A DNA stretch of 64,000 bases from the IMG/VR virus record IMGVR_UViG_3300037510_000569, positions 62,732-126,731 of that record. One strand, given 5' to 3'. The translations under genes and the position numbers were made by a program. Position 1 is the stretch's first letter. Each line of letters opens with the position of its first letter. Positions 3,238 through 64,000 of the stretch are shown piece after piece. The notes beneath the pieces were generated by a model. It was given only the letters and a program-made list of their open reading frames with translations. It did no database searches and had not been told where the DNA came from. Source of the DNA: a virus. Taxonomy: Duplodnaviria; Heunggongvirae; Uroviricota; Caudoviricetes.

Positions 3238-3304
3238 TCCTCCTGGGCATCGCTCGACGACTTAGCTTTGGTAGCTTCCAAGGTCACCGACCAAGGAGGA
3301 CGAG

Positions 3305-3935: not shown

Positions 3936-4020
3936 GGAAGGTGCTGCTGGGCTGGTCCGGCAACTGGTCTCGAAAGCCAGGGGGCGGTAATACGTCGGGG
4001 TTCGACTCCTCCACCTTCCG
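3936..4020 (+). tRNA. tRNA-Ser(CGA), class II with long variable arm
   Basis: Hand-folded: acceptor ggaaggt/accttcc, anticodon loop ctCGAaa, T-loop ttcgact. Confidence 0.7.
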
Positions 4021-4317: not shown

Positions 4318-4400
4318 GGAAGGGCGGCAATTGGTGACGCAGCGCCCCTGCTAAGGGCGTGGGTGTAACAGCCCTGCGGGTTCGACCCCCGCCCCTTCCG
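4318..4400 (+). tRNA. tRNA-Ser(GCT), class II
   Basis: Acceptor ggaaggg/cccttcc, anticodon stem cgccc/gggcg, loop ctGCTaa, T-arm gcggg-ttcgacc-cccgc. Confidence 0.7.
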
Positions 4401-4402
4401 CT

Positions 4403-5944
4403 TCAGCCGTCGTACCTCCAAGCGGCCGGGTTGATCGAGCGAGGGCGTCGGCCGCCTTCTTTGACGGAGACCATGCCGTTAGCTTGGCGGCTGTAAACGA
4501 CTCCGCGCGTTCCATCTACTCCTCGGACGATCGGGTCCCCTTTCTCCCAGTTTTCGGGGAGCCTCTTGTCGAGCTTCACCCTCTTTACCTTCTTCGTCGG
4601 CTTGCGCTTCATTACAGCCGATGGCGTGGTCGTGGCAGGACTCTCCGGGAGCGCCAGAGCGGGCAGGTGCATCGCCAGGGAAGCCGTGCGATCGGCGTAG
4701 CGGAAGACGGCTGCGGTGTTCTCCGGCACCGTCTGCGGGACATTCGCTTCCGGGGTGACGACGATCGCCGCCGCGGGGCCGACGACGAAGACGCCAGACT
4801 CTTTCATTCGGGCGACGACACGCCCGCCAGCCCGGTATTCGGCCATGTCCGCCACATCCACGTTGCTGTTGAAGCCAGTCGCCCAGACCACGAGGTCGTA
4901 GCGAGCACCGTCGACGTAGGCACCCTCGAAGGCTACGCCCGAGCTGTCAGCGCGCCTCCGGATGGGCTTCACCCTGGCGTCGGTACCGTCGATGTCCGTG
5001 GGCAGCAGTCGAGCGATGCCCTGGTAGCGGGAGCGGTTGTTTTCCTTCCAGCCCGCACGGAACGCGCAGCTTTCCGGCACCCCATACCAGTCGATCGTCT
5101 CGATGAAGTCGAGCGACGCGACGGACATCTGGCTCGATGGACCTTGGCCAGTCATTGCCTCGATCACGGTCTTGCCCGCGTCACCAGCACCGATCACGGC
5201 GACTCGTTTCAAGCCCTGAAAGGGGAAAGGCTGATCGAGGCTGGCCAGGAACTGTGGGTAGCTCATCATCCGCTCGCCGTCCATCTCGGCGGGTCCCTTG
5301 GGTTCCCCGAGACCAGTCGCGTAGATCACGCGGGCGGTCTTGATCGTCTTGCCATCGGCGAGCGTTACGCTGGTCGAGTTTGCCTCGACTACCTCTCTCC
5401 CCACGATCACTCGTGCGTTCATTGCGAGCGCCGTGCGGATGGAGAAGGAGAGCGCGGAGTTTGGCTGGTACTCGTCGCCGCTCAAGTCGGCAGGCTGAAC
5501 CGGCGCACCAGGCAAGACGTTCAGCGCTTCGCCACGACCGGGGATGCCGAGATTGCCTGGCCGGTTGCGGCTGTTCAGGTAGAAAGTGGAATCACGGCTG
5601 ACCGCGAAGATGCCGCCAGCGCGCGGTTGCGCCTCGATCACGAGCGGTTTCGGATGGCCCTCGGCCACGCGCACCGCGCAGTAGATCGCGGCATGAAGAC
5701 CAGCGCCGACAACGATCTCCGGTGCCTCCTGCGGGACGGCGGCGCTGGCCCACATCATGTCGAGCTCTCGGTCGAACATGGCGCGCGCCTGGGGGACAAG
5801 CGCTACGCCAGTGAGTTTGGCGGCGAGGGTCGAGTCGAACTCTGGCGCGCGCGCCATCATTGCCTTTACGCCGTCGTTCATGCTCTTGTCCTGAGCGATT
5901 TTGGACAGGACAGAACCAACGCGGCTGGGGGGTCGGTCGGGCAT
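4403..5944 (-). CDS. FAD/NADPH-dependent class-B flavoprotein monooxygenase (N-hydroxylating or FMO-like) with a basic C-terminal extension
   Basis: Two dinucleotide-binding motifs (VVGAGLHAAIY and VAVIGAGDAGKTV) plus the ATG motif DLVVWATGF; own RBS gaggagaaagagaATG; start-associated motif about 36 nt upstream. Confidence 0.75.
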   Translation of the reverse strand: MPDRPPSRVGSVLSKIAQDKSMNDGVKAMMARAPEFDSTLAAKLTGVALVPQARAMFDRELDMMWASAAVPQEAPEIVVGAGLHAAIYCAVRVAEGHPKPLVIEAQPRAGGIFAVSRDSTFYLNSRNRPGNLGIPGRGEALNVLPGAPVQPADLSGDEYQPNSALSFSIRTALAMNARVIVGREVVEANSTSVTLADGKTIKTARVIYATGLGEPKGPAEMDGERMMSYPQFLASLDQPFPFQGLKRVAVIGAGDAGKTVIEAMTGQGPSSQMSVASLDFIETIDWYGVPESCAFRAGWKENNRSRYQGIARLLPTDIDGTDARVKPIRRRADSSGVAFEGAYVDGARYDLVVWATGFNSNVDVADMAEYRAGGRVVARMKESGVFVVGPAAAIVVTPEANVPQTVPENTAAVFRYADRTASLAMHLPALALPESPATTTPSAVMKRKPTKKVKRVKLDKRLPENWEKGDPIVRGVDGTRGVVYSRQANGMVSVKEGGRRPRSINPAAWRYDG

Positions 5945-5979
5945 CTCTTTCTCCTCTCGGCCCGAGTATCTCGGGCGTT

Positions 5980-6008
5980 CCTTGGTCGGGTGCCAACAAA
6001 GTTATCAG
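5980..6008 (-). promoter_or_regulatory. conserved start-associated motif copy (minus strand) upstream of the monooxygenase gene
   Basis: Reverse complement reads ctgataactttgttggcacccgaccaagga, followed by hairpin cccgagatactcggg and then the RBS. Confidence 0.5.
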
Positions 6009-7728: not shown

Positions 7729-7851
7729 TTGACTCAGATAGGGTGCGCGATGCTGATCGGCACTGAGGTCCGGGCCGACCCCCTGCCGTCGCCCGGACCT
7801 CCCTTTACCCTCATCAGGTAGCCTCCCAGCACCCGACCAAGGAGTTGCCCG

Positions 7852-18408: not shown

Positions 18409-21400
18409 GTGCTGCGCGAACCCGTTTTCGAGCCGATCGAGCAAGCGGCTGACGAGGACGATCCCGAGGGCCTGCTTGGCACCGCGGCCGGGCGTCTCCT
18501 CGAGGGTGCCGCCCACAGCGGTGCGATGGTCGCGCTCTACCCCGACGCCGCCACGGCGGCCGAGCTTGCCATCTCTGACGGCGAGGACGCCGACGAGCTC
18601 CACCTGACCCTCGCCTTCCTGGGCGAAGCGGAGAAGCTGAACCTCACGCGGGCGCTCCAGGTCGTCGCCGAGTGGGCCGCAGCCTGCCCGCCCAGCCTCT
18701 CGGGTGAGATCAGCGGCGTCGGCCAGTTCGCCACGGGTCCGGTCACCTACCTCTCAGTCGATCTGCCGGATCTCCCGCCTCTGCGCGAGCGTCTGGTCGA
18801 TGGGTTCGATGCAGCAGGGGTGCCGCCGAAGCGCGACCACGGCTTCACGCCCCACATCACGCTCGACTACGCGCGGCGCCGGCCCAAGATGGACAGGCCG
18901 ATCCCGATCCGCTTCGACCGCGCGACCCTGGCCTGGGCCGGTTCCCAGTTCAGCTTCCCGCTCGGCGTCCGCTCGGCGGTGCCCCTGCAGGAGGCCCGGA
19001 TGCTCCTGGAGGGCAAATGGGACGCGAGCCTCCACCCGCGCTGGCCGAAAGGCACCCCGCGCGCGGGCGAGTTCATGCGCGTGGGCCAGCGCTTCATCGG
19101 CTCCGACGGCAAGGAGTGGCAGATCGCCCACATCGCCGGGGGCAAGGTGATCGCCAACCGCGCCGAGGGCAAATACGCCGAGACGGAGACGGGGGTCTTC
19201 CATCCCGAGAAGGTCAAGGGCGGCAAGTCACCCCTCGAAGGCGGCGAGGAGACCCACGTCATCGCCGATGTGAAGAAAGAGGCCGCACCGCGCAAGGTCC
19301 AGGGAGGCAAGGGCAAGGGCGCGACGGTGCCGATCGTCGATCCCTACGTGGACGGGTCAAGCCACGACGCCTCTCTGCCGGTTCCGGCTGGCTCGAAAGT
19401 CAGCGCCGAGGAGTGGAAACGCTTCGGCAAGATCGACCAGGAGCACTACGCCGAGTTGATGCAGCGCTTCGGCAAATACAGCCCTGGCAAGGCCAAGTCG
19501 ATGATCGACGAGGCCTACAAGGACTACGAGGCCGAGATTCAGGCGATCGTGAAGAACGCCTACAGCGCCCAGTACGGCTCCTCCTCGGGCTTCACGCTGA
19601 GCCTCACCGGCGTCTTCAAGGCGATCACCGGCCAAGACAAGAAGGAGCTGGCGAAGCTCGACGCCCAGCGCCAGCGCGCCCTCGAGCTTCAGGGCCGCCA
19701 CAAAGACGTGATCGCCTGGGACCTCTACAACCGCACGCGCTCCCCTGACGTGGCGGTCTTCCACAAGTCCAACGACCCGCCGAGCTACTGGCAGGAGTTC
19801 ATCCAGGGCAACCGGCCGGTGATGTCGGGGCTGTCGCAGTCGTTCAACTTCGGCGCGAACTTCGGCTTCGGCTCGAACACGCTGGCGACCCCGCTGGCGA
19901 TCCGCCACGTCCTGATGTCCTCCTACTCCGCCCAGCCGATCCCCGGTCAGACCCACTTCGCCGGCGAGCTCGAGATCAGCGTCGCCGAGCAGCTCAAGAT
20001 CGACAACCGCTCGATCACCTTTTCGCTGCACGACATCACCGCCAACCAGAAAAAGTGGCTGATGGGAGTCACCAAGGCACCCACCGGCGGGGACACCGTA
20101 GAGCGCTTCAAGGAAGCGCTGCAGTCCGGCGAGATGCTGCCGACCCCGCCCGCCCCGCCGGACATTCAGATGCAGGGGGAGGGGCAGAAGCTCTGGATCG
20201 ATCCGCCGCCGGAGGCCGCCGATTACATCGAGCGCTTCGCCGACAAACTGCCGGCGCAGCAGGGGTCTCCGCTGGACCCCGGCAAACTCGACAAGAAAGG
20301 TCCGTGGGCCTTCAAGGATGCGGGCGGCTTGCCGAAAGCGACCGTCGCCAAGGAGTCCGAATACAAGCCCGGCGACTACATGCTGGGGCTGAAGGGCACG
20401 CTCTACATCGTCGTCGAGGACCCCGGCGACCCGACCGGCTTCGGCTTGCGCTACGTCAAGATCGAGAACGGCAAGTTCAGCGGGGAGTCCTACAACTTCG
20501 AGGGCGGCGGCGGCAATCAGTACTTCAAGCTCAGCGCCCACTACGAGCTCCCCGACCCCCACAAAGAAGCGAAAGCATCCGACCTCTTCGACCCGCACGC
20601 CTGGGTCAACGGCGAGAAAGAGAAGTTCGTCGGCAAGCTGGAGCCGGGCGACAAGTTCAAGGTCAACGGCAGCCCCTACGAGGTCAAAGCCCAGCTGAGC
20701 GGCGCCCAGACCCAGATCACCGACCTCACCAGCGGCAAGGTCGGCACGATCAACACCGACTACAAGACCCATGTCCTGGTGCCGAAGGAGGGCTACGTGC
20801 CCGAGGCACCCGAAGGGGAGAAGCTGGCGCCGGCCAAAGGGATGACGCTCGCCTACGACGGCACAAAGCACGTCGTGACGACGATCCTGAAGGACGGCAC
20901 CGTCAAGGCGAAACCGACCGGCGGCGGCAAAACGGTGGCGATCGCAGCAGACGATCCTGAGCTGGACAACCTCTATGACCCAACCGCCCACAAGATCGGG
21001 GCCAAAATCAAGGCCGGCGACCTCGCCGTCGGCCAGCTCTTCCACGGCGGCCGCGGTTCCACGCAGCGCCCCTACGTCATCACGGGCGCGGAGGGCAACA
21101 AGGTCACCTGGCGATCGCTGGACACTGGCGAGGAGGGCATCTTCACCAAGGCCAAGCAGGTCCGACTGCTCGATGACGCGGAAGCGCCAGAGCCGGAGGC
21201 AGAGCAGCCGAGCGTCGAGCCGATCTCGCACGACCAACTCAAGCCGGGGGACTCAACGACGATCTCCAACTTGAAGGCGGGCGACTTCTTCTCGGTCGAT
21301 GGCGAAGTCTTTAACGTGGTCTGGGAGCCGCCGACGCTCGAGGACAACGCCGGCGTGGCCAAGGTGATGCCATCAGGCGAGATCGGCGCGGGGAGCAGCG

Positions 21401-22731: not shown

Positions 22732-23073
22732 ATGCCCGACCAGAACCTCCTTGCCCTCGCTCGCGCCAACCAGGTGCGAGAAGAACGGAAAGCGATCAAA
22801 GACAAGCTGGCGCGGCGGGAGCTTCTGCTCGACGATGTGCTCGAACAGCCGATCCCTCGATGCCTCGCCAACATGCGCGTTGTCGATCTGATCGCCTCGG
22901 CTCGCGGTTTCGGACAACCCAAGGCGAAAAGGGTGATTAAGCGCTTCCGCCACCCCGAGAGTCGTAGGCTCGGAAGCCTCTCCAAGCCTCAGCGAGTCGA
23001 GCTGGTCTTGCTCCTCGCTCGCCACAACGGACAGGCGCTCTACGGTGCAGCACACCGCGAGTACATCTGCTAA
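22732..23073 (+). CDS. mihF: mIHF / sIHF-like actinobacterial integration-host-factor-type DNA-binding protein
   Basis: MRVVDLIASARGFGQPKAKRVIKRF..RRLGSLSKPQRVELV resembles mycobacterial mIHF (recalled from memory). Confidence 0.55.
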   Translation: MPDQNLLALARANQVREERKAIKDKLARRELLLDDVLEQPIPRCLANMRVVDLIASARGFGQPKAKRVIKRFRHPESRRLGSLSKPQRVELVLLLARHNGQALYGAAHREYIC

Positions 23074-23098
23074 CTTTGTTGGCACCCGACCAAGGAGG
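23070..23098 (+). promoter_or_regulatory. full copy of the start-associated motif
   Basis: ctaactttgttggcacccgaccaaggagg ending 6 nt before the ATG at 23105. Confidence 0.55.
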
Positions 23099-23104
23099 TG
23101 CCCC

Positions 23105-23347
23105 ATGCAAAGGGCAGCCGTTTTCATCGTTTCAGAGGGCTTGCCGATGCTCTGCGAGCTCGCCATCCGAGAGTCCACGACGGCACCTGGCAGGATCAAG
23201 GTCGGCTTCGTCGCCGACATCCCTGAGGAGGGCGAGGTGCTGGCGACCGGAGCTGCGGCGGAGCAGCTCGGCGAGGTCTCCACGCTCCCGGAGGGCGCGG
23301 GAGGAAAGAGCCTGATGGGTCCCGAGTTCCGCCTGGAGATGAACTGA
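23105..23347 (+). CDS. hypothetical protein (80 aa)
   Basis: Strong RBS within the start-associated motif. Confidence 0.5.
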   Translation: MQRAAVFIVSEGLPMLCELAIRESTTAPGRIKVGFVADIPEEGEVLATGAAAEQLGEVSTLPEGAGGKSLMGPEFRLEMN

Positions 23348-25360: not shown

Positions 25361-26974
25361 ATGGGCCAGTATCTGCGCCAGCACTCCACGCGCTCCACGC
25401 CGCAGTCCGAGCCGATGAGCTCAGACCAGCGCCAGAACCCGGCCGGCGGCTTCGCTTGGCCGGTCGATGACTGGACGCGCGCGCGTCGCTTCCTGATCCT
25501 CGGTGCCGAGGGTGGCACCTACTACGTCGGTCAGCGCGAGCTCGTGAAGGACAACGCTGCGGCGCTTGAGCGCTGCCTCGCCGAGGACCCGATGCGCACG
25601 ATCGAGATGATCTGCGACATCAGCGACGGCGGTCTGGCGAAGTCCAACGACCCGGCGCTGTTCGCGCTGGCGATGGCGGTTGGCTCAAACGACCTGGAGA
25701 CGCGCCGCGAGGCTTGGCGTCGTCTGCCCCAGGTCGCCCGCATCGGCACGCACCTCTTCCACTTCGTTGCCTACATGCAGCAGTTCCGCGGCTGGGGGCC
25801 GCTGGCTCGCCGCGGCGTCAGCGCTTGGTACGAGGGCAAGGAAGCCGACAAGCTCGCCTACCAGCTCGTCAAGTACCGCCAGCGCGACGGTTGGAGCCAC
25901 CGCGACGTTCTGCGCCGCGCGCACCCCAAGGCACCGAGCGAACTGCACAAGGCGCTCTACGACTTCGCCTGCGGCCGGGAGTTCGGCGGCGGCGTGATCG
26001 AGGGCGAGGGAGGCGAGCGAGCTCTCAACATGATCGAGGGCTACCTGGCGGCGCAGAAGGCCGCAAGCCCGGCCGAGTCGGCGCGGCTGATCGGCGAGCA
26101 CGACCTGCCGCGCGAGGCGGTCAAGACCGACCACCTGACCTCGCCCGAGGTCTGGGAGGCGCTCCTGCGCAACATGCCGATCACGGCGATGATCCGCAAC
26201 CTCGCCAACCTGACTCGCGTGGGGATCATCAAGCCGATGAGCGACGGCGAGAAGCTCGTGGCAGAGCGTCTCGGCGACGAGGAGCGCCTGCGCAAGGGCC
26301 GTGTACATCCGATCGCGGTTCTCTCGGCGCTGACGATCTATGAGCGCGGCCATAGCGCCCTCGGTCGGGGCGAGGACTGGACGCCGTCGCAGAAGGTTGT
26401 TGACGCTCTCGATGCCGCCTTCTATACGGCCTTCGGGTCGGTGGAGCCCGCGAACAAGCGCACGCTGATCGCCGTCGATGTCTCCGGCTCGATGGGCTGG
26501 GGTGACATCGCTGGCGTTCCGGGGCTGACGCCGCGAGTCGGCGCCGCTGCGATGTCTCTGGTGACGGCGTCGACGGAGCCCGATCACGCGATCACCGCCT
26601 TCTCGCACACGATGGTCCCGGTCTCGGTCTCGCCGCGTCAGCGGATGGACGATGTGCTCCGCACCTTCGATGCTCTGCCGATGGGCGGCACCGACTGCGC
26701 GCTGCCGATGATCTACGCGGAAGAAATGGACCTCGAGATCGACACCTTCATCGCCTACACCGACAGCGAAACGTGGGCTGGGGAAGTCCACCCGGCTCAG
26801 GCCCTGCGCACCTACCGCGAGAAGACTGGCATCAACGCCCGCCTGATCGTCGTCGGCATGGTGTCGAGCGAGTTTTCGATCGCCGACCCCAACGACGGGG
26901 GGATGCTCGATGTCGTCGGCTTCGACAGCGCCGCGCCGGCGACGATGAGCGCCTTCTCCCGCGGCGAGGTCTAG
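25361..26974 (+). CDS. rsr: Ro60 (Rsr) orthologue: TROVE domain plus vWA domain with MIDAS motif
   Basis: RFLILGAEGGTYY, DGWSHRDVLRRAH, MPITAMIRNLANLT, RVHPIAVLSALTIYERGHS, LIAVDVSGSM (DxSxS), PMGGTDCALPMIYA, GMLDVVGFD; start set to the ATG with RBS gggagga because the upstream ORF extension overlaps the Y-RNA array. Confidence 0.85.
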   Translation: MGQYLRQHSTRSTPQSEPMSSDQRQNPAGGFAWPVDDWTRARRFLILGAEGGTYYVGQRELVKDNAAALERCLAEDPMRTIEMICDISDGGLAKSNDPALFALAMAVGSNDLETRREAWRRLPQVARIGTHLFHFVAYMQQFRGWGPLARRGVSAWYEGKEADKLAYQLVKYRQRDGWSHRDVLRRAHPKAPSELHKALYDFACGREFGGGVIEGEGGERALNMIEGYLAAQKAASPAESARLIGEHDLPREAVKTDHLTSPEVWEALLRNMPITAMIRNLANLTRVGIIKPMSDGEKLVAERLGDEERLRKGRVHPIAVLSALTIYERGHSALGRGEDWTPSQKVVDALDAAFYTAFGSVEPANKRTLIAVDVSGSMGWGDIAGVPGLTPRVGAAAMSLVTASTEPDHAITAFSHTMVPVSVSPRQRMDDVLRTFDALPMGGTDCALPMIYAEEMDLEIDTFIAYTDSETWAGEVHPAQALRTYREKTGINARLIVVGMVSSEFSIADPNDGGMLDVVGFDSAAPATMSAFSRGEV

Positions 26975-28205: not shown

Positions 28206-28498
28206 CGGTGATGATCGGACTCCCGACGCCTGCGGCCCAGATTCGGGAGGAGCTCGCTCGATTGCGGCGCAAGGGCCTGAGTTTCGAGATCGCCTGGCGG
28301 CGAGCACTTGAGCGCGTGAAGTGGCCCGAAGAGAAAGGGCCGCGCGACGAATGGAAGGCGATCCTCGCCGACGGCAGGCCGATGTGGGAGGACGCCTACC
28401 TCCGCAACGGCAACAAGCCGAAGGGCATGGAGGCGATCACCGGCTTCTTCCTCTCAGACGCCTCGGGCGAGCGCCAACCGCTCGAGGTCCTCGCCTAG
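28202..28498 (+). CDS. hypothetical protein
   Basis: ATGA overlap; 98 aa. Confidence 0.45.
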   Translation: MTVMIGLPTPAAQIREELARLRRKGLSFEIAWRRALERVKWPEEKGPRDEWKAILADGRPMWEDAYLRNGNKPKGMEAITGFFLSDASGERQPLEVLA

Positions 28499-29673
28499 CG
28501 CTTCACCCGCCGGAACCAGAAGGGCAGCAGGTACCCGATGCCGGTCGCGCAGGCGATGTAGAAGCCGGAGAAGAACACGCTGTGATCTGAGACGCTCATG
28601 GCGAAGTTCCACACGTAGCTGACGAAGAAGAGCAGGCAGAAGAACAGCATCACCGCGGAGACCGCCCTGTCGTACTTCAGGATGAAGCGGTCACTGCGGT
28701 CGAGCTTGATGTAGACCACAGCAGGGTGTTTCTTCGAGTGTCCGGGAGGGCAGACCTCGCCGACGTACATCACCATTCCCTCGCGCTCCTCCGGCGTCTT
28801 GTCGCCAGAGAGGACCTCGATCTCGTAGTTGCCGCGGGCGCGCGGCCTGCCATTGATACGAATGAGACCGCCTTCGCTCAGCGTCATCGGCGGCGCCCAG
28901 AAGATGTCGTTGGGGGTGGTGTCGAGCTCTGGCCGCATCTCCTCAGGAACGACATCGCCGTCTGTCTGGGACTCAACCCACGCGCGCATTGCTTTGGGCT
29001 TCGGCTCGATCACCTCGACTCCGTAGCGCCCGACCGCGCGTTTGAGCGCCGCCGCCAGGTCGTAGCTCGCCCCCTTCTCCTCGATCATCGCTTGCACCGG
29101 GGTACAGAGTGCGACGATTTCGGCGTACTCGGCTCGGATGCCCGCGTGGTGGACCTCCATGTCACCCCAGGCTCGGACGATGCCCGCGACCGGGATTGCT
29201 TCGCTCTTGCCGAAGCGGACCAGCTCGACATCACGCGGGTCGTGGTAGGCGTAGAGGCCGCAGCCGCAGTTGGCGAGGGGAGCGCGGTGCCCGTCGGCGA
29301 AGTCGGCCACGCAGACAGCGACATTGCGACCAGCCTCCCAAGTGGTGTTCCCCTGTCCCTGCGAGGTCAGGTATCCAGCTGCGTCAAGTTGCCAAGCGCG
29401 GAAACCGTAAACCGCCCCGACGAGATCCGGCGGAACCTCCGGCCGCGCCGGCGGCTCGAACTTCAGAGAGGCCGCTTCCCACTCTTCGATCGAAGTCTGC
29501 TCCCAATTGGTGCGCAAGTCGGTGACGCTGAGGACCAGCGTTTCGCCCATCCCACCAACCCGAGCAGGCAAGGTCTGTACGACCACGACCCCAGGAGCGA
29601 CAGGGACATGCTGAATTACGCGGACGAGCTTTAGCGGGTCCGCTGCGTTGCGCCAGTAGGTGCTCTCCAGCAC
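28495..29673 (-). CDS. paralog-family protein (FRAW..C..CGCGLYA..GIRAEYA domain) with C-terminal TM segments
   Basis: Minus-strand ORF with GTG start; third copy of the domain seen at 11598 and 14063; hydrophobic C-terminus LFFCLLFFVSYVW and FYIACATGIGYLLPFWF. Confidence 0.55.
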   Translation of the reverse strand: MLESTYWRNAADPLKLVRVIQHVPVAPGVVVVQTLPARVGGMGETLVLSVTDLRTNWEQTSIEEWEAASLKFEPPARPEVPPDLVGAVYGFRAWQLDAAGYLTSQGQGNTTWEAGRNVAVCVADFADGHRAPLANCGCGLYAYHDPRDVELVRFGKSEAIPVAGIVRAWGDMEVHHAGIRAEYAEIVALCTPVQAMIEEKGASYDLAAALKRAVGRYGVEVIEPKPKAMRAWVESQTDGDVVPEEMRPELDTTPNDIFWAPPMTLSEGGLIRINGRPRARGNYEIEVLSGDKTPEEREGMVMYVGEVCPPGHSKKHPAVVYIKLDRSDRFILKYDRAVSAVMLFFCLLFFVSYVWNFAMSVSDHSVFFSGFYIACATGIGYLLPFWFRRVKR

Positions 29674-29676
29674 CGT

Positions 29677-29820
29677 TTAAGCGGGGACCTTCTCGGGTGC
29701 CTTCTCTGGTGCCTTTTCAGGCGCGCGCTCAGGCTTTGGCTCCGTGCGCTCTGGCGGTGGCGCGGGGGCACGAGCGGGGTCGTCTACGCGGATGCGCTGG
29801 GGCTTGCCTGGAAGGGTCAT
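29677..29820 (-). CDS. small Pro/Glu-rich protein (47 aa)
   Basis: RBS aaggaga before the ATG (reverse complement), partial start-associated motif; PERTEPKPERAPEKAPEKAPEKVPA; hand-translated. Confidence 0.35.
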   Translation of the reverse strand: MTLPGKPQRIRVDDPARAPAPPPERTEPKPERAPEKAPEKAPEKVPA

Positions 29821-29830
29821 CGAGATGTCT

Positions 29831-29923
29831 CCTTGGTCGGTTCGTTGGAGACTACATCCTGGCGCGCAACGCAGACAACAAAGCTGTGCAGCAGGTAGTC
29901 TGCCGCTACCCCGACCAAGGAGA
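29831..29923. promoter_or_regulatory. divergent regulatory region with two partial start-associated motifs, one per strand
   Basis: ccttggtcggttcgttgg on the minus side and ccccgaccaaggag on the plus side. Confidence 0.4.
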
Positions 29924-29926
29924 TTC

Positions 29927-30739
29927 GTGGCAGACCCGTTTCGCGTCTATGGCCCCGAGGAGTGCGGCCAGGACGGCTATCCCTTCATCTGGCATCGCAA
30001 CGACGGCTCGCTCGACGCTCTGATCGCAGAGCTAGAAATCGCTGAGACCTCTGGCGTCAAGCACATCGTCCGCGCCCAGGCTGCGCACCGCTGTCTGCGC
30101 TGCAACCACCCCTTCGTGGTCGGGGAGTCGGGAGTGATGGAGGGTCCTCAGGCCGAAGCTAAGTCCTGGGCGGCCGAGATGGGCGTCGATGTCGAGGTCC
30201 TCGATGAGGTCTTCGCCGACATCGGCGTGCCCGGCCTGACGCGCGAGCAGGAGATGAAAGCCCTTGAGCGCGCGCGGCGGATCAACTGGTCACGCTGCGA
30301 CAAGCTCTGTACCCACGGTGGCCCGATCCGGGCGGCGTGGGAGAACAAGGAGACCGGCGAGACCGAAAAAGGCGATACCTGGTCGCCGACCAGCGTCGCC
30401 ACCGCCGGCGAGCTTCATCAGGAGTGGCTCGGCAAGGGCAGGATCGAAGCCGCCTGGCGCATCCTCACCGTCCACCACCTCGACGAGGTGAAGGCGAACC
30501 TGCGCTGGTGGAACCTAGTCGCGCTCTGCCAGCGCTGCCACCTCCTGATCCAGCGCAAGGTGACGATGGACCACCCCTGGCCATGGGAGCACTCGGACTG
30601 GTTCCGACCCTACGCTGCGGCTTGGTACGCGCTGAAGTATCGCGGCGAAGAGCTGAACCGGCTCGAAACGCTCGGCCGCCTTGAGGAGCTGCTGGCGCTC
30701 GGCCAGCGCGAAGAGTCCGTAGAGAGGATGCCGCTTTGA
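29927..30739 (+). CDS. HNH endonuclease with an N-terminal CxxC domain
   Basis: GTG after ccaaggag; HHLDEVKANLRWWNLVALCQRCHLL HNH core; HRCLRCNH. Confidence 0.65.
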   Translation: MADPFRVYGPEECGQDGYPFIWHRNDGSLDALIAELEIAETSGVKHIVRAQAAHRCLRCNHPFVVGESGVMEGPQAEAKSWAAEMGVDVEVLDEVFADIGVPGLTREQEMKALERARRINWSRCDKLCTHGGPIRAAWENKETGETEKGDTWSPTSVATAGELHQEWLGKGRIEAAWRILTVHHLDEVKANLRWWNLVALCQRCHLLIQRKVTMDHPWPWEHSDWFRPYAAAWYALKYRGEELNRLETLGRLEELLALGQREESVERMPL

Positions 30740-31530
30740 GCGTCCCCAGCGCCCTGCTCGACGAGCACCCGCCGATGGCGGAGTGGAGCATCCTGCTCGC
30801 CTACCGCGGCTCGATCGCGCACGGCATGTACGAGCCCAACGACATGCCGACCTCGACCGACGACAAAGACCTGATCGGAGTCTGCGTGCCGCCGCTCGAC
30901 CACTACGTCGGCTTCCGCGAGTTCGGCAACCAGCGCACCTACGAGGTGATGAGCGACCCCTGGGACATCGTGGTCTACGAGGCGACCAAGGCGATCAAGA
31001 TGCTAGCCGACGGCAACCCCAATGTCCTCAGCTTTCTCTGGCTGCCCGAGGACCTTTACCTCTCCGTCTCGTCGGCGGGGCGGCGCTTGATCGACTCCCG
31101 CGACATCTTCGCCGCTCGCTCGACCTACTTCCGCTTCATTGGCTACGCGCGCGAGCAGATGCGCAAGATGGAGAGCGGCGCCTACCTCGGCTACATGGGC
31201 GAGAAGCGCAAGCGCTTGGTGGAGGCTTTTGGCTACGACACCAAGAACGCCTCGCACCTGATCCGCATCCTGCGCATGGGGATTGAGTTCCTCGACGACG
31301 GAACGATGCGAGTTCAACGCCAGGACGCCGCCGAACTGATGGCGATCAAGCATGGCGGCTGGCCGCTGGAGAAGGTGAAGGCGGAGGCTGAGCGTCTCTT
31401 CGAGCTGGCCGCAGAGTCCCATGTGCGATCGCCTCTTCCCGACGAGCCAGATCGCGCTCGCGTCAATTCCCTGGCGGTCCAAGTCGTCCTCGAGGCGCTG
31501 ACCGAACGGGCCGAGCTCCCCAAGACCTGA
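30736..31530 (+). CDS. predicted nucleotidyltransferase (Pol-beta-like GS...DxD fold, pfam10127-like)
   Basis: LAYRGSIAHGMYEPNDMPTSTDDKDL; TTGA overlap start, or an alternative ATG at 30775. Confidence 0.5.
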   Translation: MSVPSALLDEHPPMAEWSILLAYRGSIAHGMYEPNDMPTSTDDKDLIGVCVPPLDHYVGFREFGNQRTYEVMSDPWDIVVYEATKAIKMLADGNPNVLSFLWLPEDLYLSVSSAGRRLIDSRDIFAARSTYFRFIGYAREQMRKMESGAYLGYMGEKRKRLVEAFGYDTKNASHLIRILRMGIEFLDDGTMRVQRQDAAELMAIKHGGWPLEKVKAEAERLFELAAESHVRSPLPDEPDRARVNSLAVQVVLEALTERAELPKT

Positions 31531-33628: not shown

Positions 33629-33661
33629 CCTCCTTGGTCGGGTTGTGCCAACAAAGTTAGC
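33629..33661 (-). promoter_or_regulatory. full start-associated motif copy (minus strand) before ku
   Basis: Reverse complement reads ctaactttgttggcacaacccgaccaaggagg. Confidence 0.55.
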
Positions 33662-33685
33662 ACAGAATCGCCTAGTGCAGCAGCG

Positions 33686-34099
33686 TTAGGCAGAGCGCTT
33701 TAGCTCGCGCAGGCGGGCTGTCGCCTGCTCTCGGTAGGCAAGCTCGGAATCCGTGAGCTTACGACCACCAGAGCCATAAGTGAGGATCAGGTCTGCCAGA
33801 ACTCCAGCCTCCGCCTTCTTAACGACCAGATAGGGCTGTATCGCGTCAAGTACCTCACGAACACCCTTAGCCCCCTGCACTGACCAAGCGTAAACAGGAC
33901 GGTGCTCGCCCTTGCCTTTGCAGCGCTGGTAGACAGACCCGCCGAATATGCCTTGAAGCTTCTTCAGTGCAGCGAGGTTCGTATTGCCGACCGTGATTCG
34001 TGGCATATGCCGCTGGCGAGAAGCCAGATTCCGATGAACATCGAGACATCCCTCACCGTCGATGAAGCCAGCGGCCCATGCGCGGTCAGTCTCTCGCAT
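33686..34099 (-). CDS. LAGLIDADG homing endonuclease (single-motif type)
   Basis: AWAAGFIDGEGC motif; ATG at 34099 chosen, or alternatively TTG at 34162; sits between the divergent ku and ligase genes. Confidence 0.65.
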   Translation of the reverse strand: MRETDRAWAAGFIDGEGCLDVHRNLASRQRHMPRITVGNTNLAALKKLQGIFGGSVYQRCKGKGEHRPVYAWSVQGAKGVREVLDAIQPYLVVKKAEAGVLADLILTYGSGGRKLTDSELAYREQATARLRELKRSA

Positions 34100-34137
34100 G
34101 GTCAGGCAGCCTACTGGCTGCGATCCAGCCAAATAAG

Positions 34138-34167
34138 TGCTAACTTTCTTGGCACCGACCAAGGGGA
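34138..34167 (+). promoter_or_regulatory. full start-associated motif copy before the ligase gene
   Basis: gctaactttcttggcaccgaccaagggga, 4 nt before the ATG. Confidence 0.55.
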
Positions 34168-35108: not shown

Positions 35109-35453
35109 GTGGCTGCCGATCTCATGGCAGGACTGGATCGTCTTATCCAAGAAGCAGAAGGCGATCTGAACACCCTCAAGGAGGCCAAGCTGAGCCTCCA
35201 GGGGCGCAAACGAGCAGGGCGGAAGAAAGGTGCGCCGAAGGCGCGCAAACGCGAGACCCGACGCGGGCGCAAGACGCGGGCGGTGGAGGCACTCCAGATG
35301 ATCGAGGAGAAGCCAGGCATCGGGGCGACCGAGATCGCCAAAACGATGAAGATCAAGTCGAACTACCTCTACCGAGTCCTCGGCAAGCTGGAGGACGAAG
35401 GGAAGATCAAGAAGAGCGGCCCCCGCTCCTACGAGCCGGTTCCGACGGCCTGA
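35109..35453 (+). CDS. basic protein with C-terminal winged-helix HTH, putative DNA-binding regulator
   Basis: GTG after aaaggag; KRAGRKKGAPKARKR then GIGATEIAKTMKIKSNYLYRVLGKLEDEGKI. Confidence 0.5.
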   Translation: MAADLMAGLDRLIQEAEGDLNTLKEAKLSLQGRKRAGRKKGAPKARKRETRRGRKTRAVEALQMIEEKPGIGATEIAKTMKIKSNYLYRVLGKLEDEGKIKKSGPRSYEPVPTA

Positions 35454-58117: not shown

Positions 58118-58660
58118 ATGCCTGATGAGTTCGAACAGCTTGAGCAGGAACAGATCGTCCCCGAGCTCTTCGAGGAGCCCGAGCTCCCCGATGAGGCTGG
58201 AGACGCTTTCGCGCGCGCCGAAGAAGGGGTCGAATCCGATGATCTCGTGGTCAGCGTCGAGCCGCCTCCGGCGCCGCTAGGCCGTTCCTGGGCTTTCGAC
58301 TTCTCAGCCAAGCGCTTCGTCATGGCCGGGCACGCCCCGGTCGAGACCCGCCGCGAGCAGACGCTGCTCTACTGGATTCAGAAGTGCCTGCTCACCCCGC
58401 AGGGCGGCTCGCCGATCGAGCCCGCCGACTACGGCTTCGACTCCCCGACCAACATCTTCGGCGACCAGTTCGACTCCTCGGACATCGGCACCTTTGAGGA
58501 CCGCGTGCGCGAAGCGCTGCTCTTCCACCCCTCGATCACCGGCATCGAGAACTTCCGCCTCGAACCGGACGCCGACGACGAAGAGGCAGCCCAGGTCTTC
58601 TTCGAAGCGGTCCTCGACGACGACACGAGGCTCGATGTCGCAGCGGGGGTGACGCCCTAG
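58118..58660 (+). CDS. baseplate wedge protein (gp25 / GPW-like) with acidic N-terminal extension
   Basis: LLTPQGGSPIEPADYGFDS core motif typical of the gp25-like family. Confidence 0.5.
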   Translation: MPDEFEQLEQEQIVPELFEEPELPDEAGDAFARAEEGVESDDLVVSVEPPPAPLGRSWAFDFSAKRFVMAGHAPVETRREQTLLYWIQKCLLTPQGGSPIEPADYGFDSPTNIFGDQFDSSDIGTFEDRVREALLFHPSITGIENFRLEPDADDEEAAQVFFEAVLDDDTRLDVAAGVTP

Positions 58661-59818
58661 ATGCCCGACATCACTGATCGCATCCCGCTCACCAGCGTGA
58701 CCGTCGAGGAGGTCCGTGCTCGCGTCGATGCCGACGCCAACGCCGGTCTGGACCCAGACGACGACCGCTTCATCGACACCACCGAGGGGGGCTTCTACTG
58801 GGACCTCACCCAGCCGGCGATCCTCGAGATCGCGCGCCTGTGGGACTTCGCTGCGGCAGAGGTGCCGGCGGCTATCTACGTCGCCTCCAGCTGGGGCGAA
58901 AACCTCGACGACCACGGCGAGACGATCGACGTGCCCCGCAAGGACGAGAGCTTTGCGACCGGCCAGGTGACATTCCTCGGCGAAAACGGAACGATCATCG
59001 GCATCGGTACCCAGGTTGGGGTAGCGCAGACCGACCCAAACGAGGACCCGCCGAGCTATGTAACTACAGCAGCGGGAACGATAGAAGAAGGCAAAGTTCT
59101 GCTGGCCGTAAAAGCCGAGGAGGCGGGTGCGGCTAGCAACGTGAGCGCTGGCGCGGCCTCCTTCCTGCTCTCACCTCTCGAAGGAGTTTCGGAAGTCGCA
59201 AACGAAGAAGCAATCACCGGAGGGGCCGATGTGGAGACCGACGAGTCCTACCGAGCGCGCCTTCTCATCGAGCTTGGGGCCGCCCAGGGTGCCGGCAATG
59301 TCGCCGACTACAAACGCTGGGCGCTAGCCCACGAAGGTGTCGGCTTCGTCAAGGTTGTGCCGTTGTGGGAAGGTGCGGGCACAGTACTAGTCGTCATCAC
59401 CGACGACGAAAACAACCCTTCCTCCGCAACCGTTGTTGAAAGCTTGCAAAACGAACTTGACCCAGCGCCGGGCGAAGGCCAGGGCAAAGCGCCGGTTGGC
59501 GCGATCGTAACCGTATCTACGCCAAGCGCAACCAACGTCACCGTCCAAGCAAATGTAGATCTAGAACCCGGTTACACCCTAGATGGTTCTGGCGGCACGA
59601 TAGCTGTCCGTGAATCCCTGGAAACAGTGTTGGCGGAATATATAGATCGTCTCTCTCCAGGCGATGACGTTCTCCTGAACAAAACTGAGTCGCGCTTCTT
59701 CCTAATCGAGGGCGTCCACGATGTCAACGGAGTTGAACTCAATGGCCTTGCTGCGAATGTGTCGATCACTGACACACAAGTTGCTGCAATGGAAACGATC
59801 ACTCTGACGGAAATCTGA
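58661..59818 (+). CDS. baseplate J-like protein
   Basis: 385 aa; GGADVETDESYRARLL motif; follows the gp25-like gene as in P2/Mu baseplate operons. Confidence 0.65.
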   Translation: MPDITDRIPLTSVTVEEVRARVDADANAGLDPDDDRFIDTTEGGFYWDLTQPAILEIARLWDFAAAEVPAAIYVASSWGENLDDHGETIDVPRKDESFATGQVTFLGENGTIIGIGTQVGVAQTDPNEDPPSYVTTAAGTIEEGKVLLAVKAEEAGAASNVSAGAASFLLSPLEGVSEVANEEAITGGADVETDESYRARLLIELGAAQGAGNVADYKRWALAHEGVGFVKVVPLWEGAGTVLVVITDDENNPSSATVVESLQNELDPAPGEGQGKAPVGAIVTVSTPSATNVTVQANVDLEPGYTLDGSGGTIAVRESLETVLAEYIDRLSPGDDVLLNKTESRFFLIEGVHDVNGVELNGLAANVSITDTQVAAMETITLTEI

Positions 59819-62263: not shown

Positions 62264-63316
62264 ATGTCTCAGAACGATCCACTCGACCACGGCCAAATCC
62301 TCCATGAGGGGTTTACGGACGCAATCCAGGAGCTTCTCGGTGCCCACGCTCCGACGAACTTCAAGCTCGAACGGGTTAACGGCACGACGATCAAGGTCGC
62401 CGCCGGCACCGAAAACAGCCAGGTCTCAATCGCCGTCAAAGGCCGCTATCGCTGGCGCACGACCGAAACGACAGCGGTTCTCCCAGGAGGTCTTCCCGAC
62501 GGCGAGCATCCTGTATTCGTCACCGCGTCGGACAACGACTACACCGGTCCGATCGAAGACCCGGATGCCCCGACCGTCTACACCTTCGGCCTCGAAATCA
62601 AGGAATCGGGGAAAACGCCCGCGACAGCCCTTTGGCGCGAAGTCGGCAAAGTCACCGTCACCGCTGGCGCGATCACCGCGATCCGCCAGACGGTTGCCTC
62701 GGTCAGCGGAGCCCAGATCGAGAACGGCGCGCTCTCCTCGGAATCGCCCAGCGACATCGAATGGACGCGGGCACCTGGTGGTGGCCTCGTCGCCAAGCTC
62801 AGAGCCGCGCTCGCCGCAGAACTCGGAGTTGATGGCTCGAAGGCAGATAGCTCGCTCGTGACCAAAGAAGAGTCGCGGAGTGGCGAACCATTCGCCTCGA
62901 TGGCGACAGAAGATAAAGCGGTGATCACGCTCGCGACGGCAGGGCTGATGCGCATTGGTGTGATGGCCGAGATAAAATCCTCAAAAAGCTCGGCTGGCTT
63001 GATCGCCGTTGAGATCAACGGGGTGATCGCAGGTGTCACTGCTGGAGAAAGCATCAAGATCGAAGGCAAAAGCATCGAAGAAAAATGGACGAAGATATTC
63101 ACCAGCCCGGAGCATCTCATCTCAGTAGAAGCGGACGAAGACCACGTCCTGACCTTGGAGCAAATGGGAATCTCGGGTACAGCCCCCGCAGGAACACCTT
63201 GGGTCTATCGAGCGCCTGCGGGCACCTATATCGTCAAGCTCAAGTACAAAACAAATAGCGGCACGGTCTCCGCTCGTAACCGCTGTCTCTACGTCGAAGG
63301 TCAAGAGTTCCACTAA
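62264..63316 (+). CDS. putative tail fibre protein
   Basis: 350 aa, Gly/Thr/Ser-rich beta-type composition, end of the tail gene block. Confidence 0.45.
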   Translation: MSQNDPLDHGQILHEGFTDAIQELLGAHAPTNFKLERVNGTTIKVAAGTENSQVSIAVKGRYRWRTTETTAVLPGGLPDGEHPVFVTASDNDYTGPIEDPDAPTVYTFGLEIKESGKTPATALWREVGKVTVTAGAITAIRQTVASVSGAQIENGALSSESPSDIEWTRAPGGGLVAKLRAALAAELGVDGSKADSSLVTKEESRSGEPFASMATEDKAVITLATAGLMRIGVMAEIKSSKSSAGLIAVEINGVIAGVTAGESIKIEGKSIEEKWTKIFTSPEHLISVEADEDHVLTLEQMGISGTAPAGTPWVYRAPAGTYIVKLKYKTNSGTVSARNRCLYVEGQEFH

Positions 63317-63888
63317 AGGTTTTCCAGCATCCGGCAGATTTGGTTATGGCCGACGCGGCCCCCGATCCCATTGGTCTGACCGAAGGGTCCTAGCCCAAGG
63401 CGAGGTAGCTGGCGCACATACGGCAACTTTGCGCATTGGGCATAGGCATCAGCGAAATGCTCACTGGGGTCATATAGCTTCGGTTCGGAGGGAATGTTCC
63501 ATTCCCCTTCGAGGCCGAGTATTTGCATGAACCGTTCCCTTGCCCACCCGGGCAAGACATTGGTGTCGAAGTTATGACCTAGCTCGTGGTAGAAGGTTTC
63601 CCTTGGGAAGAAGCCGACGACCATTGCCGGAGCTATCCAGATCATTCTTTCGCTTGGTTGGGTGCAGGCAGCGTAGTTCAGCTCGCGGCTTGGACAACCA
63701 TGCTCGGCGGTGGTCTCAACAACCGTAATCGGCCCGTCGGGCATCGGCATCTTTGCTTCATCGGCCCAACGCTGGTAGGGCAGAGAGCAGGGTTCGCAGT
63801 TGATTGTCAGCGCCGAGGCGGGTGCTGCTTGGACGGCAAACGCGGCACCAGCGAAAGCGAAAACGAGAGTGATGAGGCACTTCCTCAT
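63313..63888 (-). CDS. secreted zincin-like metalloprotease (signal peptide plus HExxH)
   Basis: Start moved to the internal ATG (MRKCLITLVFAFAGAAFAVQAAPASA signal peptide) because the upstream 13 codons are the start-associated motif itself; FYHELGHNFD zinc-binding motif; lower GC. Confidence 0.55.
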   Translation of the reverse strand: MRKCLITLVFAFAGAAFAVQAAPASALTINCEPCSLPYQRWADEAKMPMPDGPITVVETTAEHGCPSRELNYAACTQPSERMIWIAPAMVVGFFPRETFYHELGHNFDTNVLPGWARERFMQILGLEGEWNIPSEPKLYDPSEHFADAYAQCAKLPYVRQLPRLGLGPFGQTNGIGGRVGHNQICRMLENL

Positions 63889-63893
63889 GTGGT

Positions 63894-63925
63894 CCTCCTT
63901 GGTCGGGTACGCCAACAAAGTTAGC
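63894..63925 (-). promoter_or_regulatory. full start-associated motif copy (minus strand) before the metalloprotease gene
   Basis: Reverse complement reads gctaactttgttggcgtacccgaccaaggagg, 6 nt from the ATG. Confidence 0.55.
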
Positions 63926-64000
63926 ATCTTTGGTCTGCCGCAGCAAGTGCGTCCGATGGCGGTGCAAGGCTGATTTCGGTGTCTGTGCCACCCATCACCA

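Follow-up and report, generated by a model that had tools for sequence, protein, structure and literature searches.

Gene content of the window and a sequence repeated at gene starts

The window, that is the whole 64,000-nucleotide stretch analysed here (positions 62,732 to 126,731 of the IMG/VR virus record IMGVR_UViG_3300037510_000569), belongs to an uncultivated tailed phage of the Caudoviricetes. Upstream of nine of its genes it carries a short repeated sequence, whose architecture, conservation and possible RNA partner are described below. The DNA is 64% G+C and contains 16 tRNA genes. Among the encoded proteins are a tail sheath, baseplate proteins, a Ro60/TROVE protein, RlaP, Ku, an ATP-dependent ligase and a 2'-5' RNA-ligase domain. 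At the nucleotide level, the window matched no cultured phage. The sheath protein is ~24% identical to sheaths of Firmicute phages. Among the similarities to cultured phages, only that of the RNA-ligase domain, which matches actinobacteriophages, hints at a host. The window is part of a 134.7-kb metagenome contig, and identical Logan contigs extend the window by 7.3 kb on the left (L224) and by 9.3 kb on the right (L223).

The repeated sequence was described by two blocks. Block B is CCGACCAAGGAG, also written CCGACCAAGG(AG) to set off its decamer, CCGACCAAGG. Block A is TGnTAACTTT(G/C)TTGGC. Copies with block A were called class I and copies with a TAGNNT hexamer class II. When block B was searched in the window with at most one mismatch, 10 matches were obtained as compared to 0.51 expected, and none of 100 shuffled sequences reached 10. 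Nine of the ten matches are intergenic, each oriented to the following gene. The remaining one (1774-1785, CCGACCGAGGAG) was discarded as a chance match, lying inside a coding sequence with no hexamer upstream. The end of block B is 4-8 nt away from an ATG or GTG start codon in eight of the nine copies. Block A is present in five of the nine, separated from block B by a spacer of 1-5 nt; because of this variable spacer, a rigid 28-mer search of the window recovers just 2 copies. The coordinates given to the copies in the initial annotation were all correct. Its proposal that the motif works in either orientation did not hold, every gene-proximal copy being in the sense of its gene.

The nine genes carrying block B in the window (hereafter tagged genes) are all non-structural, and include those of Ku, the ligase and an HNH-like protein. 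Beyond the window, recT and the gene preceding a methylase are also tagged. Overall, 13 gene-proximal copies were counted in the merged 80.6 kb that comprise the window and both extensions. No copy was found in the structural modules, either at 36-63 kb of the window, where the sheath, baseplate and tape-measure-like genes are located, or in the structural region of the close relative introduced below. It had been supposed that every gene with a full motif is a moron-like accessory gene; instead, the tagged genes are ordinary non-structural genes, and neither integrase nor repressor was found among the scanned window proteins or the precomputed annotations of the flanks. Block B has the features of a start-associated sequence (SAS): it is a short asymmetric repeat near start codons, has a Shine-Dalgarno (SD) core inside, is in gene sense and precedes non-structural genes. 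The resemblance to the SAS of Cluster K mycobacteriophages pointed out in the initial annotation is thus one of kind, the sequences being different. Sequence collections scanned for 15 nt of block A or 14 nt of block B yielded single chance matches only, a motif search of cultured phages gave matches at chance level only, and a literature search for the motif sequence returned only unrelated primers.

Conservation of the motif in related genomes

One close relative (130 kb) was found in IMG/VR. Its nucleotide identity to the window genome is 65-77%, and identities of 37-72% were obtained for the orthologous proteins compared. This relative has exactly the same 28-nt motif, in flanks that have diverged. 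For instance, the cassette at 23068..23097 is unchanged (L064) though the orthologous protein is 44% identical. Searching for RecT homologs led to ten related genomes with conserved synteny and RecT identities from 77% to 44%, and the motif is present down to the most distant of them. Within the window, the flanks of the copies are unrelated to each other. Nothing but the shortness of the core speaks for chance similarity, or for decaying and functionless remnants of one duplicated segment. This explanation can practically be dismissed in view of the number of matches over expectation, the intergenic and gene-sense placement of the nine copies, the unrelated flanks and the persistence of the motif among diverged genomes.

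Block B is linked to a -10-like hexamer

The full copies carry the hexamer TAACTT. The four copies previously described as partial carry other TANNNT hexamers at that place (TAGCTT, TAGCCT, TAGTCT and TAGTCT); each having its own hexamer, they are not degenerate. In the window genome, the relative and the metagenome fragment L222 taken together, TANNNT occurs 7-12 nt upstream of block B in 21 of 25 intergenic copies, and the recT copy, with its hexamer at 17 nt, is a 22nd case. Near-matches of block B located inside genes have no upstream TANNNT. Base 7 or 8 past the hexamer is an A in 17 of the 22 sites.

The comparison covered 28 AAGGAG sites that have a start codon and an open reading frame (ORF) after them. 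The hexamer is present at 11 of the 12 sites with CCGACC and at none of the 16 sites without it (exact p ~6e-7). Therefore, CCGACC tracks the -10-like hexamer and not the use of an SD as such. AAGGAG(G) is used without CCGACC by seven other genes, showing that CCGACC is not required for a good ribosome-binding site (RBS). AAGGAG is the SD core, whereas CCGACC is not known to correspond to any part of the usual 16S rRNA 3' tail.

The hexamer was also found away from block B. At eight of 78 gene starts, TANNNT precedes the start codon by 5-10 nt and an SD is absent, as compared to 0.8% in the null. The corresponding mRNAs are probably leaderless, judging from this arrangement, a layout typical of Actinobacteria. 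Taken together, these sequence features make TANNNT look like the working -10 element of this phage. From the leaderless architecture and the RNA-ligase matches, we infer an actinobacterial host.

TGn (TGC or TGA) precedes the hexamer in all five class I copies. The -35-like elements are less regular: TTGCTG-N17 is found at the protease gene in four genomes and CTGCAC at 15-17 nt in some copies, with nothing comparable in others. A consensus promoter scanner reported no promoter. Block A contains a 6-3-6 inverted repeat (GCTAAC-TTT-GTTGGC) that overlaps the -10; it is matched at 5/6 positions, and at 4/6 in the C variant.

Block B follows at least three types of upstream sequence, namely class I, class II (cagcagGTAGnCT) and a recT-region type, CGTCCGG-N9-11-TAGNNT; it is therefore not part of the promoter. 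In three copies (window 5978-5989, L159:5552 and L099:966), a separate RBS lies 17-36 nt further on, and CCGACCAAGG is nevertheless kept, 8-10 nt from TAACTT. Overall, the comparisons indicate that block B is a leader module, neither a part of the promoter nor only an RBS. We consider it quite probable, on this evidence, that the cassette consists of a promoter followed by a conserved leader. The promoter-plus-RBS cassette suggested in the initial annotation is borne out in that a -10-type hexamer is tied to a block B containing the SD. As a side observation, CGTCCGG is conserved 9-11 nt upstream of the -10 hexamer throughout the recT-methylase region, including the putative promoter of the predicted small RNA described below; it may represent a third promoter class or an activator site.

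Several other readings of the motif were tried and rejected. A GTGCWGCAC regulatory palindrome is not enriched (15 found, 15.1 expected). A sigma-54 reading of TTGGCAC lacks TTGC at -12, and the probable host phylum is not known to have sigma-54. The likeness of TAACTTT to the T7 gene-10 epsilon enhancer (TTAACTTTA) was ruled out, class II having TAGNNT instead. A GUUGG/CCGAC mini-hairpin within the motif would have a loop ranging from 1 to 6 nt, without compensation. Finally, a leaderless start from block B is ruled out by the perfect SD, the 4-8-nt spacing and the three copies with distant start codons.

An exact complement of block B upstream of recT

Besides the gene-proximal copies, the genome has one further copy of the decamer, which is in reverse orientation and occupies L223 4776-4785, ~2.4 kb past the window end, within the 228 nt preceding recT. 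On the recT-sense strand, a predicted hairpin loop UUGGUC closed by CC/GG lies inside CCUUGGUCGG, the exact complement of block B (hereafter anti-B). CCTTGGTCGG is invariant on this strand of the recT-upstream gap in 10/10 related genomes recovered. Every complete case shows a single TANNNT 34-51 nt upstream of anti-B and a strong stem downstream. In the sequence L239, an HNH gene is inserted between this RNA element and recT, and both the element and recT are kept. The initial annotation had advised searching for a complementary small RNA. A complement exists, but it matches block B (CCGACCAAGG) and not TTGTTGGCAC.

Used with no prior constraints, RNAalifold returned a 4-bp stem closing UUGGUC, two pairs of which switch (AU/GC and CG/UA), and an 11-bp terminator-like stem with seven compensatory pairs. 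Compensatory changes thus affect 9 of the 15 pairs of the consensus helices. The covariation score of the hairpin exceeded those of 500/500 shuffles and of all slid controls, and the fold z-score of the small-RNA region was -2.9 as compared to shuffles. The predicted small RNA, ~120 nt long in the genome of the window, has no Rfam family match.

Contiguous Watson-Crick complementarity to the loop segment amounts to 10-13 nt in 13 leaders of the window genome, whereas it does not exceed 8 nt (mostly 4-5) in 66 other start regions. We used this measure instead of RNAduplex energies for the whole small RNA against the leaders, which are not discriminating in GC-rich sequence (-31 kcal/mol for targets, -27.5 kcal/mol for controls).

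Proposed mechanism and alternative explanations

We propose a two-part mechanism. In the first part, transcription of the tagged genes would be driven by a host-type, sigma-A-like -10 element. In class I, this would be an extended -10, TGnTAACTT, with a weak -35-like TTGCTG or CTGCAC ~17 nt upstream; in class II, it would be TAGNNT. Transcription is predicted to start 7-8 nt past the hexamer, in most cases at an A, which places the start 0-5 nt ahead of block B. With the hexamer as -10 and such a start, block B would occupy the very 5' end of a ~20-25-nt leader, the 3' half of block B (AAGGAG) serving as SD. In the second part, block B would act as an RNA-level tag present on at least 13 non-structural mRNAs, under at least three promoter types. 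A predicted phage small RNA of ~100-165 nt would pair, via its loop, with the 5'-terminal tag of the block-B mRNAs. The pairing would cover AAGG, the first half of the SD, so that translation of the tagged early and middle genes would be lowered together while the untagged late structural mRNAs would be spared. Repression was chosen as the sign of the effect because the SD is covered by the pairing; stabilisation or activation could take its place.

Conservation, covariation and complementarity make up the case for the antisense RNA, a part of the mechanism that we hold with evenly divided confidence. The whole reading, with promoter, tagged leader and antisense small RNA masking the RBS, we likewise place halfway between doubt and acceptance; it is the likeliest of the readings considered. 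Several points weigh against it. The start sites, the small RNA and its pairing with the leaders are predicted, and so are the production of this RNA and the sign of its effect. Past TAACTT, seven nucleotides (TGTTGGC) are more conserved than a -10 requires, which a promoter, a leader and a small RNA do not explain. The 11-bp stem is mostly without a canonical U tract, and a simple terminator scanner found nothing at the small RNA. The flanks of the small RNA covary so as to preserve the hairpin and not to lengthen the target pairing. In L244, the leaders are changed to CCGACCAGGAGG with the loop unchanged, and pairing remains only as 9 bp with a G.U pair; therefore, no co-variation between tag and anti-tag is seen. 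The parallel in Cluster K described in the last section is not general, since TM4 (Cluster K2) has no reverse SAS. The uncertainty on the host must be added to these points.

All the promoter and leader evidence would also fit if the cassette were a promoter with an optimised leader and nothing else. Block B would then be a strong unstructured initiation region, or a site for an RNA-binding protein, inherited as a unit, and the reverse copy would act only in cis, as a long recT leader or an attenuator pairing with the block B of recT itself, or have no role in other genes. Consistent with this, only 120-150 nt separate anti-B from the downstream block B of recT in 9/10 genomes, and cultured actinophages have repeated cassettes with no known antisense partner (Hashim76, 4 copies; Cluster K ESAS/SAS, PMC11373665, see below). 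However, CCGACC is dispensable for the seven genes that use AAGGAG(G) alone, CCGACCAAGG survives in copies that have a separate RBS, the RNA element persists in L239 though the inserted gene parts it from recT, and a strong covarying stem lies between anti-B and recT. We regard this explanation as rather unlikely, though it deserves serious consideration.

An invariant decamer that occurs once inverted would equally fit a DNA-binding site. Block A, overlapping the -10, and/or block B, at ~+2 to +12, might thus be double-stranded operators bound by a phage regulator that shuts the promoters, an arrangement similar to the L5 stoperators or to the repression proposed for the inverted repeats of the ESAS. 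Conservation of block A over 16 nt, more than a -10 needs, and its partly palindromic character speak for such operators, and a candidate MarR-like winged-helix gene (35109-35453, 37% identity in the relative) is present in the class I ligase operon. Block B, however, is asymmetric and strictly gene-sense save for the one copy in the covarying RNA hairpin, it occurs behind unrelated upstream sequences, and the C variant reduces the palindrome of block A. As a full explanation, operators are therefore improbable in our opinion. An operator limited to class I promoters is plausible because of the over-conservation of block A, its inverted repeat and the conserved winged-helix gene in the ligase operon, and it could coexist with the tag and small RNA proposed here.

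The region from hexamer to block B could alternatively be transcribed, from upstream promoters or by read-through, and pair with the SD/start region, leaving CCGACCAA in a loop as translational operator or kissing-loop target. The 16 nt upstream of block B do tend to be complementary to the SD/start region, with a combined Fisher p of 2e-5 when compared to shuffles and of 0.002 when compared to genomic segments, a result that also weighs against the proposed mechanism. Without the non-independent class I copies, the values are ~4e-4 and 5e-3, and ordinary SD gene controls gave 0.8 and 0.5. In minimum free energy folds, the 5' arm of most copies is paired to the SD/start region, with block B in the loop, and the recT leaders contain CUCC/CCUCC upstream of block B. 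Yet the individual p values are mostly >0.05, three or four sites driving the result, and whole-motif fold z-scores are only -0.2 to -2.1. Moreover, an orthologous GGUGCC to GGUACC change breaks the stem without compensation, and the invariant T-A-N-N-N-T, like the same hexamer before leaderless genes, is left unexplained. An RBS-sequestering hairpin therefore seems to us very unlikely as the general explanation. If the start sites are as placed above, the 16 nt upstream of block B are untranscribed; they might have a role in read-through transcripts, on which such a hairpin may operate alongside the antisense RNA.

Returning to the promoter, tagged leader and antisense RNA, block B could be viewed as a private address tag by which one small RNA switches off or retunes the tagged set while sparing host mRNAs and untagged late mRNAs, with the same logic holding for the SAS of Cluster K1. 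We put this forward tentatively, with somewhat more doubt than belief. Were it true, a single RNA would provide compact post-transcriptional control of a dozen or more scattered transcription units, and the tag and anti-tag would form a ready-made orthogonal pair for gene control in high-GC bacteria. This phage family gives a falsifiable mechanism for SAS, consisting of a promoter-proximal leader tag and one antisense RNA with its exact complement. If the promoter-leader part alone holds, it would still supply annotation rules for a novel phage family, with a TANNNT -10, leaderless genes and three promoter types.

Individual cassettes and neighbouring genes

The cassettes and the other elements discussed above are listed in Table 1.

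Table 1. Positions of the cassettes, of related promoter-like elements and of the predicted small RNA (window numbering unless a sequence identifier is given)
Feature	Position (strand)	Upstream elements	Block B	Start codon and gene
Class I	5978..6007 (-)	TGA + TAACTT 5999-6004	CCGACCAAGGAA 5978-5989	ATG 5944, Pyr_redox_2 oxidoreductase
Class I	23068..23097 (+)	TGC + TAACTT 23071-23076 + TGTTGGC, spacer AC; reads TGC-TAACTTTGTTGGC-AC-CCGACCAAGGAG, then GTGCCCC-ATG	CCGACCAAGGAG 23086-23097	ATG 23105, 80-aa protein
Class I	33630..33662 (-)	TGC + TAACTT 33654-33659, spacer ACAAC	33630-33641	ATG 33622, Ku
Class I	34138..34166 (+)	TGC + TAACTT 34141-34146 + TCTTGGC	CCGACCAAGGGG 34155-34166	ATG 34172, ATP-dependent DNA ligase
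Class I	63895..63946 (-)	TTGCTG -35-like 63941-63946, 17-nt spacer ending TGC, TAACTT 63918-63923	63895-63906	ATG 63888, secreted HExxH protease
Class II	3272..3298 (+)	TAGCTT 3272-3277, 9 nt	3287-3298	ATG 3305
Class II, after tRNA cluster	7819..7844 (+)	TAGCCT 7819-7824, 8 nt	7833-7844	ATG 7852
Class II	29829..29854 (-)	TAGTCT 29849-29854, 8 nt	29829-29840	ATG 29820 (47-aa ORF, then 392-aa ORF)
Class II, back to back with 29829..29854	29896..29922 (+)	TAGTCT 29896-29901, 9 nt	29911-29922	GTG 29927, HNH-like protein
SD-less starts		TANNNT 5-10 nt upstream; several preceded by GCAGCAG		9395, 11436, 13047, 18409, 22732, 26996, 27656, 41024
CGTCCGG sites	L223 7370-7412; L233/L235/L236/L240	CGTCCGG		in L233/L235/L236/L240, upstream of recT, PDDEXK gene and small gene before methylase
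Predicted small RNA	L223 4744-4866 (= window ~66420-66542), recT-sense	TACTCT -10-like hexamer, UUGGUC loop, terminator-like stem		

In the copy at 5978..6007, block B is followed by a leader hairpin and then by an RBS of the gene's own; block B is kept though it is not the SD there. This TGA-type class I copy has a counterpart in the relative: window 5944-5990 (-) and L159 5460-5552 (-) share a homologous 45-65-nt leader with the hairpin GCCCGAG...CUCGGGC. The two cassettes head unrelated genes, coding for a 513-aa oxidoreductase in the window and for a ~110-aa protein in the relative.

The initial annotation had raised the possibility that the cassette travels with mobile genes. For this idea we found weak support, namely that one class I cassette heads unrelated genes in the window genome and the relative, and that one reverse-strand module not seen in the relative is bordered by two copies; other insertions and deletions, however, occur without any copy. 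At 28495-29820 (-), the window has a pair of reverse-strand ORFs (47 aa and 392 aa) without family matches; the parts of the relative that are sequenced do not contain this pair. In the relative, the ortholog of the adjacent HNH-like gene lacks a cassette and is coupled directly to an ssb-like gene preceding it. The promoter-leader layout of the copy at 7819..7844 is shared by the relative (L159:301), in which no protein ortholog of gp7852 was detected.

Between the divergent Ku and ligase promoters, a LAGLIDADG homing-endonuclease gene is inserted at 33686-34102 (-) (Pfam E 2e-6). The insertion ends 8 nt before a CTGCTGCAC element located upstream of the Ku promoter. The relative does not have the LAGLIDADG gene, and its Ku and ligase promoters are ~90 bp apart.

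At the protease gene, the layout TTGCTG-N17-TGCTAACTT was also observed in L235, L236 and L238, making four genomes with that of the window. The 191-aa product of this gene (63313-63888, -) has a signal peptide and an HELGH motif, with no Pfam or PHROG match. The label of secreted metalloprotease is supported by the gene at the corresponding position in L236, an ortholog annotated as Peptidase_M10.

Other features of the window concern RNA repair and quality control: a Ro60/TROVE + vWA gene (25361-26974), an RlaP nucleotidyltransferase gene (30736-31530) and a LigT-like 2'-5' RNA ligase domain (18409-18900) with which a 1434-aa protein begins. Rfam gave no Y-RNA-like match, and a Ro60-based search for related loci yielded unrelated phages only. 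ARAGORN called an 89-nt tRNA-Ala(GGC) at 28417-28505 (-), which is probably a false positive because it overlaps two ORF ends and the Rfam tRNA model is silent there. Two tRNA-Ser calls of ARAGORN (3940-4019 and 4318-4401) are likewise not in the Rfam list.

Comparison with known start-associated elements and antisense RNAs

SAS were described in 2011 in Cluster K mycobacteriophages (PMC3203893) and later noticed in several clusters of actinophages, and their role is still called unknown (PMC11373665). Like block B, they are asymmetric repeats placed 3-9 nt before many non-structural starts, with an SD core inside, conserved beyond rRNA pairing, in one orientation and absent from structural genes. 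A subset has an upstream extension; in Cluster K, this extended form (ESAS) is described as probably containing SigA-like promoters (PMC11373665), and the extension in our cassettes would likewise hold a putative SigA-like promoter. The consensus differs, being GGGATAGGAGCCC in Cluster K and CCGACCAAGGAG here. Whereas only about half of the SAS have an ESAS, every window copy has a -10-like hexamer at 7-12 nt; -10 and tag are more closely linked here. The pair of 17-bp inverted repeats of the ESAS has no equivalent in our cassettes, where only the weak 6-3-6 repeat of block A is found. The genomes are unrelated, the present one being that of an uncultivated myovirus-like phage of ~135 kb.

In every K1 phage, one SAS is in reverse orientation and stands away from any gene start (PMC3203893). 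In Adephagia, we counted 16 SAS and one reverse copy (record 58682-58694), located in the gap between genes 92 and 93. This reverse SAS (GGCCTCCTATCCC on the top strand) lies in the loop of a perfect 10-bp stem, CGTCGACCAG/CTGGTCGACG (L242 48660-48715 = record 58659-58714). The same gap shows TAGACT ~95 nt upstream of the reverse SAS and a strong terminator after gene 92. Late transcription in Adephagia is reported to start between genes 92 and 93 (PMC11373665). No antisense RNA is proposed for SAS in the papers cited here. The parallel with the K1 reverse-SAS hairpin, drawn by analogy, is a lead and not a result; Adephagia, which is cultivable, offers a place to test the mechanism.

The SAS-like motif of Microbacterium Cluster EF (GGGAAAGGACCCC) and the repeats of Clusters EC, EG and EI (PMC7302621) resemble the present cassettes in being cluster-specific, in occupying short gaps before non-structural genes and in being kept across diverged genomes. 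All of them differ from our cassettes in sequence and distance; the EC, EG and EI motifs are 14-30 nt upstream, without an RBS. Mycobacterium phage Hashim76 (PQ844485.1; L226-L228) has four cassettes, upstream of genes 2, 48, 98 and 99. Each consists of a -35-like element, a -10 (GGTAACTT/GGTAATTT), a hairpin AGGCGGGAyyGACCCGCC, (A)CCGGACAAGGAG or CCGACCAAGGAG, and ATG; the exact block B 12-mer occurs in one copy. The design is the same, with similar -10 and SD context, but Hashim76 differs in having a conserved hairpin between -10 and SD, and the genomes are unrelated.

The stoperators of Cluster A phages are 13-bp asymmetric repressor-binding sites found in many short intergenic regions of temperate phages and oriented with transcription; they are not tied to a -10 or an RBS. 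Those of L5 gp71 are mentioned in PMC3203893. In our genome, every copy is tied to both the hexamer and the RBS position, and the proteins scanned include no repressor or integrase.

Structured phage antisense RNAs that act on leader or RBS targets are represented by the P1/P7 c4 RNA, the P4 CI RNA and P22 sar, which control a developmental decision. Those RNAs of temperate phages address one operon through one to three target sites, whereas the target predicted here is a tag on at least 13 transcription units. The actinobacterial 6C RNA acts through a loop motif on the SD regions of multiple mRNAs. In Staphylococcus aureus, RsaE pairs with many SD regions through a conserved UCCC motif (PMC2790875). 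As in RsaE and 6C, the hairpin loop predicted here is complementary to an SD-proximal sequence of multiple mRNAs. It differs in that RsaE and 6C recognise a generic G-rich SD, whereas the present loop fits a private 10-nt tag located mostly upstream of the SD, which would give specificity for phage mRNAs. Overall, the cassette itself is of the known SAS kind, and an anti-tag RNA would be new for start-associated elements.

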